Source: Myxococcales bacterium
GTDB lineage: Bacteria > Myxococcota_A > Polyangia > Palsa-1104
DNA length: 64,000 nt
NCBI GenBank assembly: GCA_028287105.1
Contig: JAQBQH010000289.1
Coordinates: 4,544-68,543, forward strand
Direction of reading: 5' to 3'
A program made the position numbers and the translations under genes. This document shows positions 59,220 to 64,000 of the stretch, piece by piece (position 1 is the first letter of the stretch; each line of letters begins with the position of its first letter). The notes beneath the pieces were generated by a model. That model made no database searches and had not been told where the DNA came from. It saw only the letters and a list, made by a program, of their open reading frames with translations.

Positions 59220-59316
59220 ATAAGCAACCTACCATGTGCCGGCGCATGTCAAAATCCGACGGGAGCCGGTGACTCGAAGTTTGACAGCGGAGCGCGGGGC
59301 GAAAAGACTTGGGCGG

Positions 59317-60231
59317 ATGCATCGCGCTCGTTCGGTCTGCTTCGCCTTGTGCCTCGCCGGGTCGCTGGCGCAGGCACAGGCGCAGTCGCCCGCGCCAGCT
59401 TCCAAGGTCACGCCCTCGATCCCTCCCGCGCCGACGCCGTCGACCACGCCCTCCGGCATCAGCGTCGCGCCCGCGACCGCCAAGCCTGTCGCCAAGGTGC
59501 GCAAGCGCAAGAGGCTGCCGCCGCCACCACCGCCGCCCGCGGCCGAGCTCTTCGCCATGAACACGCGCGAGAGCTTCAAGCTGCGCCCCGACGCCAAGGG
59601 CCGCTTCACCAAGGTCGCCCTGCGCGGCTGGAATCGCTTCCTCCGCTGCCACCACACCGGCCGCGTGCACGCGATGTCGACGCGCCTGGCCGAGCTCATC
59701 TACACCGTCGCCAAGCACTTCGAGTTCAAGAAGATCTACGTCGTCGCCGGCTATCGCGCGCCGAAGGTCGCCAAGGAGAAGGGCAACCCGAAGTCGCCGC
59801 ACAAGAAGGGAGTCGCCTGCGACTTCAAGGTCGACGGCGTCCCCAACACCGAGCTGCGCGACTTCGAGCGCACGCTGACGCGCGTCGGCGTCGGCTACTA
59901 CCCGAACTCCGACTTCGTCCACCTCGACGTCGATCCGTCGCGTGTCAAGCGCTCGGCGTTCTGGATCGACTACTCGCGCCCCGGCGAGCGCGCGCGCTAC
60001 TCCAAGACGCCCGACTCCGACCTGCAGGCAGAGAAGCAGCCGGCGCTGCCGCCGTCGCCGACGCTCGTGGGAGACGACGATGACGACCTCCTGGCGCCGA
60101 TGCCGCCGCTCGCCGGCACGTCGCCCATAAAGAAGGAATCGGGGGGCGGCGAGCCACAGCTTTTCGGAGGCCCGGGGGCGACCGCCCCCAATCCGACCCC
60201 TTCGCTCGCTCCAAATCCCCGTATCCCCTAG
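59317..60231 (+). CDS. YcbK/DUF882 peptidase M15A-family secreted protein
   Basis: Signal peptide, Pro-rich linker, FLRCHHTG, AGYR, SPH..G.ACDF, GVGYYPNSDFVHLD. Confidence 0.88.
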   Translation: MHRARSVCFALCLAGSLAQAQAQSPAPASKVTPSIPPAPTPSTTPSGISVAPATAKPVAKVRKRKRLPPPPPPPAAELFAMNTRESFKLRPDAKGRFTKVALRGWNRFLRCHHTGRVHAMSTRLAELIYTVAKHFEFKKIYVVAGYRAPKVAKEKGNPKSPHKKGVACDFKVDGVPNTELRDFERTLTRVGVGYYPNSDFVHLDVDPSRVKRSAFWIDYSRPGERARYSKTPDSDLQAEKQPALPPSPTLVGDDDDDLLAPMPPLAGTSPIKKESGGGEPQLFGGPGATAPNPTPSLAPNPRIP

Positions 60232-60285: not shown

Positions 60286-62502
60286 ATGCGTAAGCCACTC
60301 ATCACGTTGGCGTTGGCCGCGGCGCTGCCGATTGCAGGCTGCGACAATGGTCAGACGAACGTGCTCGGAGGCGTCCCCGCGATCGCCTATATCTCGCGCA
60401 CGCCAGCCGACACCGGCAACGTGTTCGACTACACCGGCGGCGGTACGGACGGCAACCTCTTCACCCTGACGCCGCCTACCGCGTCGGGCGTGAAGAAGAA
60501 CCTGACGAACTGGGCCGGCGGCGACGTCAACGCGCTGGACCTTTCGTTCGACGCGCGAGAGCTGGTCTTCTCGGGCAAGGCGCCCGGCGAGGAGCGCTAT
60601 CACATCTTCCGCATCAACGTCGACGGGACCAACCCGTGCGACGCCGCGCAGGGCAAGGTGACCGTCGGTCCCTGCCAGGTCACGATGGGCCCGAACGACG
60701 AGGTCTATCCCATCTACCTGCCGGCCGGCCGCATCTTCTACGTCACCAACCGCAACGTCGAGGGCGGCGCCGTCCCGCAGTTCATGGACGAGTACGAGCG
60801 CGCCACCACCGCGCAGGCCGCGACCATGAAGCTCGACGGCTCGGATCAGATCCTCGGACCCCGCAACGTCTCGCACCGCGTGGCGCCGACGCTGCTCTCC
60901 GACGGCCGCATCCTCATGACCGAGTGGCGCCACCTCGGCGACGTCAACGAAGGCGACCTCACCATCATGCAGCAGGATCTCACCGGCGTGCGTGAAGGCT
61001 TCGGCCGCGAGTCCAAGGGCGTGGCCAACAGCTACCTCCGCGCTCGCGAATACGCGCCCGGTCAGCTCGTCGTCATCGGCACCTCGCGCGACCGCACCTA
61101 CCAGGCGGGCAAGATCCTGCGCGTCAACCTCGGCGGCAGCGACATCACGCAGCAGTCCGAAGCGCGCTCGTCGGCGGAGGACCTCACGCCGCTCGTGCCC
61201 GCCGACCGCACGCCGTCGTTCAAGGACGTCGGTCGCTACTACGACGTCGCTCCCGTGCCGGGCAACAGCGATCGCTTCCTCACCACGTGGGCCGACGGCG
61301 CCGTCGAGACCGAAGTGCTCTCGATGGCCAAGTCGCACCCCGACTTCGGCATCTACGTCTTCGACGCCAAGTCGAACACCCGCTATCCGATCGTCAACCA
61401 GCCCGACAGCTGGGAGCAGTCGCCGCTCGCGATCGTCCCGCGCAACGAGCCGCCGACGCTGACGCCGCTCTTCGCCGCCACCGGCACGACCGGCACGCTC
61501 ATCGGCGCCATCAACGTCTACGACTCGACGATGTTCAACGTCACGCCGGGCAGCGCCATCAAGGTCCGCGTCTCCGAAGGCTTCTCGTCGGAGGAAGGCT
61601 TCCCCGGCGACTTCGGCCTCACCGAGTTCGACGGCCAGGCGCGCCTCGGCGAGGTGCCGATCAACGCCGACGGCTCGTTCAAGGCACAGATTCCGGCCAA
61701 CACGCCGGTGCGCCTGCAGCTCATCGACAAGTTCGGCATGGCGCTCGCCACCTCGGGCGCCGGCGGTGACACCGCGGCCGAGCCGGTCTGGATCCAGGGT
61801 CGCTCGGGCGAAGCGCGCGTCTGCGGCGGCTGCCACGAGGATCGCGTCAAGCCGATCGCACTGGCGCCCGGCAGCTCGATCTTGCAGGCCTCCGGCTCGC
61901 CCGACCTCTTCACCAACATCGCGCGCCAGGAGCGTCGCTCCGACGTCTTCACCTACGACAAGATCATGGGCGTCCCGTGGGACAAGGCAGTGCAGCCGAT
62001 CCTGAGCGCGAAATGCGCCGTCTGCCACGACGGCACGGCCGGCGCGGCCAACCCGAGCTACACCATCACCGACGTCACCGACATGACGATGTTCAGCTTC
62101 ACCTTCGACCTGTCGGCCAAGCCGGTCACCATCGACGCCGGCGACCGCATGTACACGTACACGGCTTCGTACATCGCGCTGCTCGGGCCGCAGATGGCCT
62201 TCCGCGAGAAGCAGATCATGATCACGGGCGACCCGAAGATGTACGTGACTCCGGGCGCCGCGCACTCGTCGGTGGTGGTGCAGATGCTCAATCCGCCGCA
62301 GCGCTTCCCCAACGTCGACATGAACGTGCGCGCCTTTCCGAGCAAGCCCGTCCATCCGGCCGAGGTCGGCGTGTACAACGGCCACGACGGCGCCGACGCC
62401 GCCTATCAGCTGACGGCGGACGAGTACTACACGCTCATTCTCTCCTCCGATTCTGGAGGTCAGTACTACGCACGCGAGAACAAGATGGGAGGGCCGTACT
62501 AA
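60286..62502 (+). CDS. Lipoprotein with beta-propeller, hydrazine-synthase-alpha-middle-like domain and two CxxCH heme motifs
   Basis: IAGC lipobox; LSFDARELVFS, P.LLSDGRIL.TEW, LGEVPINADGSF....PANTPVRLQLID..GMA, GEARVCGGCHE, QPILSAKCAVCH. Confidence 0.8.
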   Translation: MRKPLITLALAAALPIAGCDNGQTNVLGGVPAIAYISRTPADTGNVFDYTGGGTDGNLFTLTPPTASGVKKNLTNWAGGDVNALDLSFDARELVFSGKAPGEERYHIFRINVDGTNPCDAAQGKVTVGPCQVTMGPNDEVYPIYLPAGRIFYVTNRNVEGGAVPQFMDEYERATTAQAATMKLDGSDQILGPRNVSHRVAPTLLSDGRILMTEWRHLGDVNEGDLTIMQQDLTGVREGFGRESKGVANSYLRAREYAPGQLVVIGTSRDRTYQAGKILRVNLGGSDITQQSEARSSAEDLTPLVPADRTPSFKDVGRYYDVAPVPGNSDRFLTTWADGAVETEVLSMAKSHPDFGIYVFDAKSNTRYPIVNQPDSWEQSPLAIVPRNEPPTLTPLFAATGTTGTLIGAINVYDSTMFNVTPGSAIKVRVSEGFSSEEGFPGDFGLTEFDGQARLGEVPINADGSFKAQIPANTPVRLQLIDKFGMALATSGAGGDTAAEPVWIQGRSGEARVCGGCHEDRVKPIALAPGSSILQASGSPDLFTNIARQERRSDVFTYDKIMGVPWDKAVQPILSAKCAVCHDGTAGAANPSYTITDVTDMTMFSFTFDLSAKPVTIDAGDRMYTYTASYIALLGPQMAFREKQIMITGDPKMYVTPGAAHSSVVVQMLNPPQRFPNVDMNVRAFPSKPVHPAEVGVYNGHDGADAAYQLTADEYYTLILSSDSGGQYYARENKMGGPY

Positions 62503-63347
62503 TGCGCACCGCAATCGTGATGATGGCCTTGTTGGCGCCGCTTTCGGCGTTCGCCGGTCGGGGCGGCTCGACGGTGGCAATCAAGGCGGCAGCGCAGTCC
62601 GGCTCGGCCGACGCCATCGTGGCGGAGCTGGAGCGCGCCGAGTTCCTCGCCTGCCTCTCGTGCATCGACGCGGTCCTGCCGCTGGTCGATCACGAGTCGG
62701 CCAGGGTGCGGGACGCGGCCGGTTGGTGGCTGGGACGGCGCGGCGTGCGCAGTCAGGTCATCTCGACCATGCAGGCGCGTCTCGCGGGCGGCGACCCGGT
62801 GGCGGCGCGCAACGCCGGCGACGTGCTGGCGGCGATGCGCGACTACACGACGCTGCCGGCGCTGACCACGTACCTCAGTCAGCCGCTCGACGAGGAGTCG
62901 GGCGTCTCCGTGGCGCGCGCCGTCGGGATCATCGGCCATCCCTCGGCAGTCGCGACGCTGCAGGGTGCGCTCGCCTCGCCGCTGTCGGGCGTGCGGGCGC
63001 AGGCGGCCGCTTCCTTGCGCCAGCTGCGCGCACCGGCCGGCAAGAAGGTCGCCGCGTCGGCGCCGGCGCTCTTGCCGCTGCTCGGTGACAGTGACGCGGG
63101 CGTGCGCCGCGAGGCCATCATGACGCTCGGATTCGTCGGCCAGTCGGGCGGCGATGTCTCGGGCGCCGTCGCGGCGCTGTCGGCCGTGGCGACGGGTGAC
63201 GCCTCACCCGGTGTGCGCAAGGCGGCGGCGTGGGCGCTCGGCGAGATGAAGGATGGCGCGGCGCGTCCTGCGCTGCAGGCCGCCCAGTCCGACTCCGATC
63301 CGCTGGTGCGGTCGATTGCGACCGCCGCGCTCGCCAACCTGCGGTAA
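62502..63347 (+). CDS. Secreted HEAT-repeat protein
   Basis: TAATG overlap; signal peptide; CLSC; repeated D....VR..AA.ALG. Confidence 0.85.
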   Translation: MRTAIVMMALLAPLSAFAGRGGSTVAIKAAAQSGSADAIVAELERAEFLACLSCIDAVLPLVDHESARVRDAAGWWLGRRGVRSQVISTMQARLAGGDPVAARNAGDVLAAMRDYTTLPALTTYLSQPLDEESGVSVARAVGIIGHPSAVATLQGALASPLSGVRAQAAASLRQLRAPAGKKVAASAPALLPLLGDSDAGVRREAIMTLGFVGQSGGDVSGAVAALSAVATGDASPGVRKAAAWALGEMKDGAARPALQAAQSDSDPLVRSIATAALANLR

Positions 63348-63359
63348 AATCCTGCCGGG

Positions 63360-64000
63360 ATGCATTACCCTCGACTATTACTAGGCTCCCTCCTCGCGCT
63401 CTCGGCGGTCGGTTGTGACGACCAGCCGGCGGCGGGCCCCAAATATTACGAGCGGGTCATCCAGCCGATCCTGACGCAGAACTGCGTCTTCAATCAGGGC
63501 GCCTGCCACAAGGACGACGGCAAGGGCAACGCGCTCGGCAACCTCGACCTCACCAGCTACGCCGCGCTCTCGAAGCGCAAGGACGTCCTGCGCACCTACG
63601 GCTCCTTCCCCGTGCCGCTCCTGCTCCTCAAGGCGTCGGGCGCGCAGGTGCCGCCCATCCCGTACAAGGGTAAGACCGACGGCAAGACCGACTTCTACCC
63701 ATCGGAGATCGAGCATGCCGGCGGCGCTACGCTCGGCGTCACGTCGTCGGCGTTCCTCGAGCTGCAGAAGTGGCTCGCCAACGGCGCGCAGGAGGACGGC
63801 TCCGTCGTCAACAAGCCCCAGCAGATGGGGACCGGCGACTGCAATCCGAACTTCATGACGGTGCGCCCCGACGTCGCCGCGCAGCTGCCGACGGTGGATA
63901 CGAGCTCGGCCGCGTTCAAGCAGTTCACCGCCGACGTCGAGCCGGTGGTCACGCAGAGCTGCGCGTTCTCGACCTGTCACTCGGGCGAGCAGTCCGACTT
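63360..64000 (+). CDS. Lipoprotein with planctomycete-cytochrome-c-like domains, atypical CXnCH (3' truncated; not in ORF track)
   Basis: MHYPRLLLGSLLALSAVGC; IQPILTQNCVFNQGACH...GNLDLTSY...HAGG...KWLANGA; VEPVVTQSCAFSTCH. Confidence 0.8.
   Translation, partial: MHYPRLLLGSLLALSAVGCDDQPAAGPKYYERVIQPILTQNCVFNQGACHKDDGKGNALGNLDLTSYAALSKRKDVLRTYGSFPVPLLLLKASGAQVPPIPYKGKTDGKTDFYPSEIEHAGGATLGVTSSAFLELQKWLANGAQEDGSVVNKPQQMGTGDCNPNFMTVRPDVAAQLPTVDTSSAAFKQFTADVEPVVTQSCAFSTCHSGEQSD

Follow-up and report, generated by a model that had tools for sequence, protein, structure and literature searches.

To our knowledge, hydrazine synthase (HZS) was long seen as standing alone among enzymes. Papers of 2023 (PMC10732223) and 2025 (PMC12758564) then reported distant homologues whose chemistry is not known, and the available text of the earlier paper proposes that the hzs-like genes form a broader enzyme family with other substrates. 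In the alpha subunit HzsA, haem alpha-II is bis-His coordinated via the distal His772. In the passages of PMC12607021 and PMC12758564 that treat the haem sites of HzsA, the proximal ligand of haem alpha-I is Tyr591, four residues past the motif histidine, which binds zinc instead. For the alpha homologues outside anammox bacteria, the main text of Hagglund et al. 2025 (PMC12758564) describes co-located fused beta-gamma homologues, usually an FG-GAP gene, and a canonical haem alpha-I with Tyr591 missing, and gives no known function. Here we describe a three-gene set, g1-g2-g3, at the 3' end of a 64,000-nucleotide stretch of Myxococcales bacterium DNA (the window: contig JAQBQH010000289.1, positions 4,544 to 68,543; G000:C73:4544-68543 in our numbering, G000 being the window's genome). 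It codes for two HzsA-like lipoproteins with an exported HEAT-repeat protein between them. The initial annotation of this DNA, made from the letters alone, had named the cluster as its best candidate for an undescribed system. That is right for the alpha-HEAT-alpha' architecture, which is what is new here, and wrong for HzsA-like proteins outside anammox, which the 2023 and 2025 papers had already made known; its remark that no function had been assigned to such members is in line with PMC12758564. The literature searched, with the main text of that paper (supplementary tables not covered), yielded no description of an alpha-HEAT-alpha' triad, of a three-module protein like g3, or of a CX6CH or CX8CH motif.

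The open reading frame (ORF) listing gives three co-directional genes, with the following features in the window.

60286..62502, forward strand: g1, ORF with ATG start, 738 amino acids, lipoprotein
60340..60342, forward strand: lipobox cysteine Cys19 of g1 (LPIAG-C), read from sequence
61609..61839, forward strand: HZS_alpha middle-domain match of g1, residues 442-518 (Pfam PF18582)
61822..61836, forward strand: g1 haem motif 1, CGGCH, C513-H517, predicted; homologous to the haem alpha-I site
62014..62028, forward strand: g1 haem motif 2, CAVCH, C577-H581, predicted; homologous to the haem alpha-II site
62502..63347, forward strand: g2, 281 amino acids, exported HEAT-repeat protein of the PBS-lyase/alphaRep type
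62652..62663, forward strand: CLSC of g2, C51-C54, a CxxC pair in a conserved N-terminal segment
63360..64000, forward strand: in-window part of g3, its first 213 codons; the window edge cuts the gene
63414..63416, forward strand: lipobox cysteine Cys19 of g3 (SAVG-C), read from sequence
63483..63509, forward strand: g3 module 1, CVFNQGACH (CX6CH), C42-H50, predicted haem site; partner His119 at 63714-63716
63960..63980, forward strand: g3 module 2, CAFSTCH (CX4CH), C201-H207, predicted haem site; partner His261 past the window edge

The g1 stop and the g2 ATG have one base in common at 62502 (tac TAATG cgc), and a spacer of 12 bases separates the g2 stop at 63347 from the g3 start at 63360. 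The initial annotation had pictured this arrangement: a 738-residue lipoprotein g1 carrying the strings LGEVPINADGSF, PANTPVRLQLID, RVCGGCH and CAVCH, a signal-peptide HEAT protein g2 with CLSC, joined by a TAATG overlap, and a lipoprotein g3 12 bp downstream. Every item that it listed is present in the sequence, in which g1 opens with the lipobox MRKPLITLALAAALPIAGC and g3 with the lipobox MHYPRLLLGSLLALSAVGC. The extent that it gave, 60286..64000, is correct at its start only, since 64000 is the edge of the window; the full g3 has 1015 amino acids and runs on to a stop at window-equivalent 66407 (G000:C73:67903-70950; 3904-6951 of L001, the window's own locus).

On its predicted model, g1 is a full-length structural homologue of hydrazine synthase alpha with all three domains, a six-bladed propeller (residues ~27-390), a middle domain (~400-520) and a C-terminal cytochrome-like domain (~545-735). 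The profile of 72 g1 homologues (alignment A1) has a sole match in the PDB, 5c2v_A, which is hydrazine synthase alpha (E 3.9e-23); six collinear stretches of the match span the propeller through the C-terminal domain. The AlphaFold2 model (predicted local distance difference test score, pLDDT, 86.3; predicted template-modelling score, pTM, 0.85) also finds 5c2v_A as the top Foldseek match (E 7e-28, TM-score TMq 0.67), followed by the TolB and LRP6 propellers (E ~5e-9, TMq 0.28). VIA-align places 565 residues of the model (27-735) on the chain (53-802) with Z 33.8 and a root-mean-square deviation of 3.1, and matches TolB by the propeller alone with Z 25. The HZS_alpha family membership suspected from the letters is borne out by Pfam PF18582, which g1 matches at 43.4 bits (E 5e-11, gathering cut-off 26.6), or 46.6 bits in the genome search.

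Both haem sites of HzsA have counterparts in g1: the profile alignment pairs CGGCH with RICSGCH and CAVCH with KCAMCH of 5c2v_A. The lipobox Cys19 and the residues C513, G515, C516 and H517 of motif 1 are invariant in A1, as are C577, C580 and H581 of motif 2 and H690. Both sites, which had been expected to be conserved among homologues as CxxCH, are kept in 30/30 orthologues; motif 1 reads C[GV]GCH in all of them, and motif 2 reads CXXCH in 28 and CX4CH in two. In these two orthologues (L059 and L060, family f12) the second site is CATSGCH or CGTNGCH, a natural CX4CH swap at a homologous position. His690 is a candidate distal (sixth) ligand of the second haem; in the alignment, which is of low confidence there, it precedes the residue paired with chain His745 (= His772) by about six positions.

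The gene set had been taken for one HzsA-like protein with two accessories. The first half of this holds for g1, but g3 is itself a second, rearranged HzsA-like protein bearing CX4-6CH modules, so the system is an alpha/alpha' pair. By profile comparison, g3 is a paralogue of g1 with a complementary domain set: three CXnCH/His modules (~22-440) are followed by a propeller (~440-870) and a HZS_alpha-type middle domain that ends in CGGCH (C975-H979). Residues 439-983 of g3 are paralogous to residues 26-521 of g1 (hhalign probability 99.6%, E 1.6e-23), and the g3 profile matches 5c2v_A at E 2e-10. The Pfam HZS_alpha score of g3 is borderline against the cut-off of 26.6, at 24.3 bits in hmmscan and 27.9 bits in the genome search. 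Its AlphaFold2 model (pLDDT 85.8, pTM 0.87) matches 5c2v_A in Foldseek at E 7.3e-22 over 627 columns and TolB in VIA at Z 25.9, a fold search that covers mainly the propeller (residues 430-831). g3 is without the C-terminal cytochrome domain and has only the propeller and the middle domain in common with HzsA. In a search of the whole genome, g1 and g3 are the only two Pfam HZS_alpha matches, which puts their meeting in one trio far beyond chance.

The N-terminal modules of g3 follow one plan. Each has an invariant histidine 54-69 residues after its motif, mostly as H-x-G-G (H119, H261 and H384); module 3, past the window edge, consists of C314-X4-C319-H320 with partner His384. In 71 g3 database homologues (A2) and 25 g3 orthologues from genomes (A4), C42, C49, H50 and H119 of module 1 are invariant, and so are the motifs of modules 2 and 3 with their partners His261 and His384. 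The spacing in module 1 is CX6 or CX8 among orthologues. The modules are homologous to one another (hhalign 97% for modules 2-3 and 65% for modules 1-2), and 24/24 full-length g3 orthologues retain the four motifs; the lipobox Cys19 is conserved at 90% or more in A2. One genome (G434) has two full-length g3 copies, on contigs C137 and C348, with 49% and 47% identity to the window's g3, and one g1. In another locus (L056, G284:C2, 4970-7892) g3 is split over two frames that meet near residue 243, owing either to a frameshift or to an error in the sequence of that metagenome-assembled genome.

The protein between the two lipoproteins has a signal-peptide-like N-terminus ending AFA/G and matches Pfam HEAT_2 at 98.9 bits and HEAT_PBS at 38.1 bits. 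Its profile finds artificial alphaRep proteins (E 6.6e-95), CpcE (5n3u_A, 2.5e-16), YibA (3.6e-12) and deoxyhypusine hydroxylase in the PDB, all within residues ~83-272. These matches make g2 a solenoid for generic binding, built from PBS-lyase-type repeats like CpcE/CpcF, NblB, E. coli YibA and deoxyhypusine hydroxylase. Unlike these, g2 is exported and lies within a haem-protein operon, and its conserved N-terminal segment, with the CxxC pair and a WW, falls outside their matches. This segment is family-specific, with E44, E47, R70, W75 and R80 invariant, and includes an invariant WW-R segment. No equivalog cut-off is approached by g2, and its assignment as a CpcE or NblB equivalog was rejected at 27.7 bits against 330 (CpcE) and 36.8 against 300 (NblB).

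How does this set compare with hydrazine synthase itself (HzsA, kuste2861, 'Ca. Kuenenia stuttgartiensis', PDB 5C2V chain A)? Its three-domain build with both haem sites recurs in g1, whereas g3 has the propeller and the middle-domain haem site, three N-terminal CXnCH modules and no C-terminal domain. Sequence identity is 17-22%. Both g1 and g3 are lipoproteins, and the host is a soil myxobacterium, not an anammox planctomycete. The counterpart of Tyr591 is missing: g1 reads CGGCH-EDRV, and g3 has Val at this position (CGGCH-GSVSG versus CSGCH-YGSYRG). Nor was any sign of the Zn site seen, Cys303 not being covered. Against the hydrazine_alpha equivalog NF052339, g1 scores 43.7 bits with a cut-off of 800, and g3 gives no match. 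There is no beta or gamma gene in the cluster, the neighbours being MepK, HEAT, g3 and g4; CCP_MauG matches in the genome are confined to contigs C383, C335 and C314, with the sole beta-gamma-like ORF on C314. Considering the lack of the tyrosine ligand, of an adjacent beta-gamma gene and of an equivalog-level score, the triad, judged on its sequence, is not hydrazine synthase.

A second comparison is with HZS-like clades I-IV, as the main text of PMC12758564 presents them. In common are distant homology to HzsA, a His-ligated haem alpha-I and the missing catalytic residues, and the TM-scores of those proteins to HzsA (~0.66-0.67) match the 0.67 of g1. Three things differ. First, the triad has no beta-gamma homologue in or beside it, in the window and in the gene clusters recurring in 31 loci. 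Second, in clades I-III an FG-GAP/CRTAC1 gene adjoins alpha, whereas g2, g3 and g4 show no FG-GAP match. Third, alpha is paired here with a second alpha-like paralogue, the HEAT gene lying between them. Nowhere does the main text of PMC12758564 (supplementary tables not covered) contain 'Myxococc', 'Polyangi' or 'HEAT'.

Myxococcota outside the class of the window's genome carry the published type (L164 5065-11025, L165 6138-13312, L166 5739-12778 and L161 5012-10925). Their clusters combine an alpha-like protein of ~1000 amino acids having two N-terminal CX4CH modules, a single-CX4CH protein of ~170 amino acids, a propeller plus CCP_MauG-like dihaem protein of ~850 amino acids, ApbE and DUF3570; no HEAT gene is present in them. 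With an ApbE flavin transferase beside these clusters, one of their partners may be flavinylated. A second haem cluster of the window's own genome is on contig C314 (L170 7208-13188), unlinked to the triad, with an 846-amino-acid protein that has four CX4-5CH modules and no HZS_alpha domain, a 982-amino-acid propeller plus CCP-like dihaem (beta-gamma-like) protein and a 183-amino-acid single-CX4CH protein. The occurrence of the CXnCH/His module both there and in the clusters of other Myxococcota marks it as a recurring partner of HZS-like enzymes. With TolB, g1 and g3 have in common a six-bladed PD40-type propeller in an envelope protein (Z ~25), whereas the haem domains are found in g1 and g3 only, and a common fold alone is no proof of common function. 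Placing g1 and g3 in the TolB family was rejected, there being no NCBIfam TolB model match and only weak profile matches (E ~0.003).

The adjacency of the three genes, which had been proposed as a criterion for the system, is kept across a bacterial class. In the window's family, g1 occurs in 13/14 other genomes, and 10/10 family loci read mepK-g1-g2-g3, two of them ending within g3 at contig ends; g4 is present in 8/10. A sample of 401 genomes of the phylum has 43 that match g1 at E<=1e-10, complete genomes among them (for example G279 and G409). In 34, namely the window genome and 33 others of its class, the match is nearly full-length at 33-51% identity, and nine from other classes match only around g1 residues 436-629. 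g2 directly follows g1 in 30/30 loci (10 family and 20 class-level), and g3 comes next in 17/20 of the class-level loci. The exceptions are a contig end (L055), a g3 on another contig (L072, genome G099) and a g3 that is 40 kb off on the same contig (L074, genome G155). In L072 (G099:C107), g2 matches in two frames at 1577-2280 and its ORF ends early at 227 amino acids; the genes normally found downstream come after g2 with no g3 between, g3 being on contig C370. This is decay or rearrangement or an assembly error.

A scan of species-representative genomes found 335 g1 relatives, and the loci of the best 80 of these were compared, at least 11 of them on the same contigs as the family and class-level loci. 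These 80 are metagenome-assembled genomes labelled Polyangia, Polyangium, Kofleriaceae, Haliangiales, Myxococcales or broader, and one Acidobacteriota. Where a locus of the 80 extends at least 1200 bases past g1, g2 and g3 are both present in 66/67, and g2 only in one (L133); among the 13 shorter loci, g2 is visible in 10 and three stop at g1. Co-occurrence was counted in 201 genomes of the class, with matches at E<=1e-30: g1 is found in 65 and g3 in 65, both in 64, g1 only in 1, g3 only in 1, and neither in 135. In the g1-only genome (G521), a contig ends 1.4 kb away from g1; in the g3-only genome (G448) there is a weak paralogue (32%). Coordinates place g3 ~1-1.3 kb downstream of g1 on the same contig in 55/64 two-gene genomes, and six of the other nine have contig breaks or separate contigs of fragmented assemblies. 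The distribution is patchy by family (f1 6/6, f10 22/24, f78 18/26, f12 9/25, f4 4/11, f3 0/15, f15 0/21, f80 0/14), so that the triad is a lineage-specific set of part of class Polyangia and no class-wide core. These genomes are all kin, and the counts describe co-inheritance and co-loss without implying independent events.

Within Polyangia the order g1-g2-g3 persists down to about 32% identity (28-35%), and all neighbours except g2 and g3 change between families. The TAATG overlap, the 12-bp gap, the kept order and the joint gain and loss point to one conserved operon. Pairwise distances correlate at 0.94-0.96 in a mirror-tree comparison, which was set aside as functional evidence, common ancestry explaining these values. 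In a quick IQ-TREE phylogeny (propeller plus middle region, 43 rows, midpoint root), the g1 orthologues form one clade on a long stem with a Shimodaira-Hasegawa-like approximate likelihood-ratio test (SH-aLRT) support of 100. The g3 orthologues form another (99), nested among module-bearing alpha-like proteins, and the two clades match in internal topology. This suggests that g3 may have come from the module-bearing alpha lineage, elsewhere the partner of beta-gamma, by loss of the C-terminal domain and gain of a third module.

Two further genes flank the triad in the window's locus.

window 59236-60231, forward strand: MepK-like M15 peptidoglycan L,D-endopeptidase (Peptidase_M15_2, 84.4 bits), 54 bases upstream of g1
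L001 6979-7833 (window-equivalent 66435-67289), forward strand: g4, 284 amino acids, exported, 27 bases after g3

mepK was rejected as a member of the system, being adjacent in 10/10 loci of its own family versus 0/20 of other families. g4, which has no Pfam or NCBIfam match, was rejected as well: it occurs in 8/10, 4/20 and 25/80 loci of the three sets, is kept only in families f1, f10 and f12, and probably stands outside the core of the system. Beyond the triad, the neighbouring genes have housekeeping roles, namely MutS, a SPOR protein, HisIE, a thiolase, a kinase and MepK.

Whether the expanded CXnCH motifs are haem sites matters for any account of g3. We infer from the sequences that all six motifs of g1 (two) and g3 (four) carry covalent haem c. 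Their cysteines and histidines are invariant in A1, A2 and A4, and the features expected of c-type cytochromes, a conserved motif, a lipobox export signal and Ccm genes in the genome (CcmE, CcmF and CcmC, for haem maturation), are all found for g1 and g3. CX4CH is a recognised haem-binding motif in the available text of PMC11492766. It replaces CXXCH at the homologous site of the g1 orthologues L059 and L060, and in the homologous C-terminal domain of distant relatives the motif is either CXXCH (P0388, P0362) or CX4CH (P0370, P0371, P0373, P0341, P0328). In hhalign, the profile of g3 module 1 is matched to the haem helix in the cytochrome domain of g1 (88%, 20 columns), and A2 gives a weak profile alignment to DIQPILDAKCAMCH, the helix of HZS-alpha that carries haem alpha-II. 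In the g3 model, each motif is at or just past the end of a long helix (H29-43, H184-201 and H296-311), and the only internal low-confidence segments are the histidine loops 251-265 and 382-388 and the stretch after H320; such loops would fit cofactor-dependent loops, which proves nothing. ESM Atlas feature matches of g3 to 'cytochrome c domain' clusters (0.89-0.91) are leads only. Compared with c-type cytochromes that have CX4CH sites, such as tetrahaem cytochrome c3, modules 2 and 3 of g3 have CX4CH with a distant invariant histidine, and CX4CH and CXXCH interchange at homologous sites among the relatives of g1 and g3. The differences are that no sequence relative of solved structure and no matching Pfam model was found for the g3 modules, and that module 1 is CX6CH or CX8CH.

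We lean, cautiously, towards reading the triad as an envelope-tethered haem-c redox complex with two reactive HzsA-type haems and four bis-His relays, g2 serving in bridging or assembly. In this complex g1 would contribute its propeller, a middle-domain haem on CGGCH, and a cytochrome-like domain with a second haem on CAVCH whose sixth ligand would be His690. g3 would have the same propeller and middle-domain haem, with three N-terminal cytochrome-like modules as its electron-transfer part; these would bind haem via CX4-6CH, and the invariant histidine 54-69 residues on would be the second axial ligand. The HEAT solenoid of g2 may hold both lipoproteins together or aid their assembly. Electrons would enter or leave through four low-spin haems, one in g1 and three in g3, and reach the two HzsA-type haems with their ordinary His proximal ligand, where a small substrate (candidates are an N-oxide, hydroxylamine or a peroxide) would be reduced or oxidised. 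Where other HZS-like systems have the beta-gamma subunit, this one would have g3. It is from sequence, too, that we infer the spin states, the complex formation and the redox catalysis. The machine would be membrane-tethered and face the periplasm; both lipoproteins have Asp at +2, which in E. coli would mean inner-membrane retention, and myxobacteria sort lipoproteins differently from E. coli.

Several observations weigh against this redox complex. g3 does not keep the propeller motifs that are conserved among g1 proteins; the two need not act on one substrate. Residues 1-449 of g3 have no Pfam or NCBIfam match, a PDB profile search with the g3 N-terminal alignment found no relative below E 0.5, and the motif list in the available text of PMC11492766 has no CX6CH or CX8CH spacing. 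The g2 CxxC, present in 27/31 aligned orthologues, is missing in L016, L017, L022 and L023. Three genomes have g3 away from g1-g2, one at 40 kb (G155) and two on other contigs (G099 and G165), and a conserved order within one class is heritable without any functional link. Among the neighbours in the 31 loci compared there is no electron donor, nitrogen-cycle gene or regulator that hints at a substrate, and a search of public sequencing runs listed no RNA run with the locus and found no expression data.

Other explanations can be offered for the same gene set. First, with the haem proteins as above, g2 may be no stoichiometric subunit but a periplasmic factor dedicated to the maturation of g3: as a chaperone or lyase it would present the CX6-8CH and CX4CH sites for haem attachment, much as HEAT proteins of the CpcE/CpcF type join bilins to cysteines. 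Long-spaced haem motifs need dedicated lyases (MccA, NrfA). By its repeats g2 is of the PBS-lyase HEAT class (HEAT_PBS 38.1 bits; CpcE 5n3u_A, E 2.5e-16), its N-terminal CxxC is conserved in 27/31 orthologues next to the invariant WW-R segment, and the CX6/CX8 spacing, which occurs only in g3 module 1, is always accompanied by g2. However, CX4CH modules occur without a nearby HEAT gene in other Myxococcota and in the C314 cluster of the same genome, and the four orthologues that lost the CxxC stand beside a g3 that retains all motifs. The CpcE and NblB equivalog scores (27.7/330 and 36.8/300) are far under their cut-offs, and the alphaRep-type HEAT fold is a generic binding scaffold. We regard a maturation role for g2 as unlikely.

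Second, the triad may have a mainly non-redox envelope role, in which an envelope polymer or protein, such as peptidoglycan or another glycan, is the ligand of the TolB-like propellers and the haems are structural or sensing; in a variant, the haems would oxidatively modify the bound polymer. Consistent with this, the propellers match TolB strongly (VIA Z 25 for g1 and 25.9 for g3), both proteins are lipoproteins, MepK is directly upstream in 10/10 family loci, and a SPOR protein is encoded two genes upstream in f10, f12 and f16 loci. But the MepK adjacency is confined to one family and seen in 0/20 class-level loci, mutS separates the SPOR gene from the triad, and the Pfam scan found no lectin or carbohydrate-binding domain in g1, g2 or g3. 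Six invariant haem motifs are an expensive and specific redox kit, and the propeller fold is no proof of a common function. Such a role seems to us quite improbable.

A bolder version of the maturation idea joins two proposals: g2 would be a haem lyase or chaperone of the CpcE/F class for the CX6-8CH (perhaps also the CX4CH) sites of g3, and g1 and g3 would form a two-active-site HZS-like enzyme in which a second alpha-type subunit with a three-haem wire replaces beta-gamma and handles a reactive nitrogen or oxygen intermediate. We hold it to be highly doubtful. If true, cytochrome c would here mature by a route not among the systems known so far, and the bilin lyases would have their first relative that attaches haem.

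That the three genes are functionally unrelated and neighbours through common descent within Polyangia is very improbable. All loci are from one class whose members are kin and not independent, and distance correlations of 0.94-0.96 are what common ancestry alone would give; yet the order persists at 28-35% identity although no other neighbour stays the same, gain or loss of g1 goes with that of g3 (64 with both, 1 + 1 with one, 135 with neither), the g1 stop overlaps the g2 start, and the domain sets of the paralogues g1 and g3 complement each other. A true hydrazine synthase or cryptic anammox-type enzyme, suggested by the overall HzsA fold and both haem sites of g1, is hardly credible in view of the missing Tyr591 counterpart in both proteins, the 43.7 bits against 800, the absence of a beta or gamma gene from the cluster with the sole beta-gamma-like ORF on another contig, and the like conclusion that the main text of PMC12758564 draws for other non-anammox homologues.

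The triad is a third, self-contained form of the HZS family, with two alpha-type subunits, a HEAT partner and no beta-gamma. It occurs in aerobic soil Polyangia, and with hundreds of homologues it is conserved enough to be under selection. The triad offers a test of an HzsA-type haem site with an ordinary His ligand, and a three-gene set is small enough for expression and assay. g3 brings in a previously unmodelled cytochrome-like module with CX4, CX6 and CX8 spacings, which bears on the reach of the Ccm machinery. Should the set turn out to be a plain electron-transfer or envelope system, a recurring 'hydrazine synthase' mis-annotation in myxobacterial genomes would still be removed.

Scans of L001 for regulatory signals were uninformative: no promoter-like site was found (0), and 6 terminator-like sites against 4.2 expected included none between g1, g2 and g3. 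In the search of public sequencing runs, one soil metagenome contains 93% of the words of the locus and the remaining runs hold small shares. The Pfam HZS_alpha model also has a match above cut-off in Bacteroides thetaiotaomicron, which served as a control genome.

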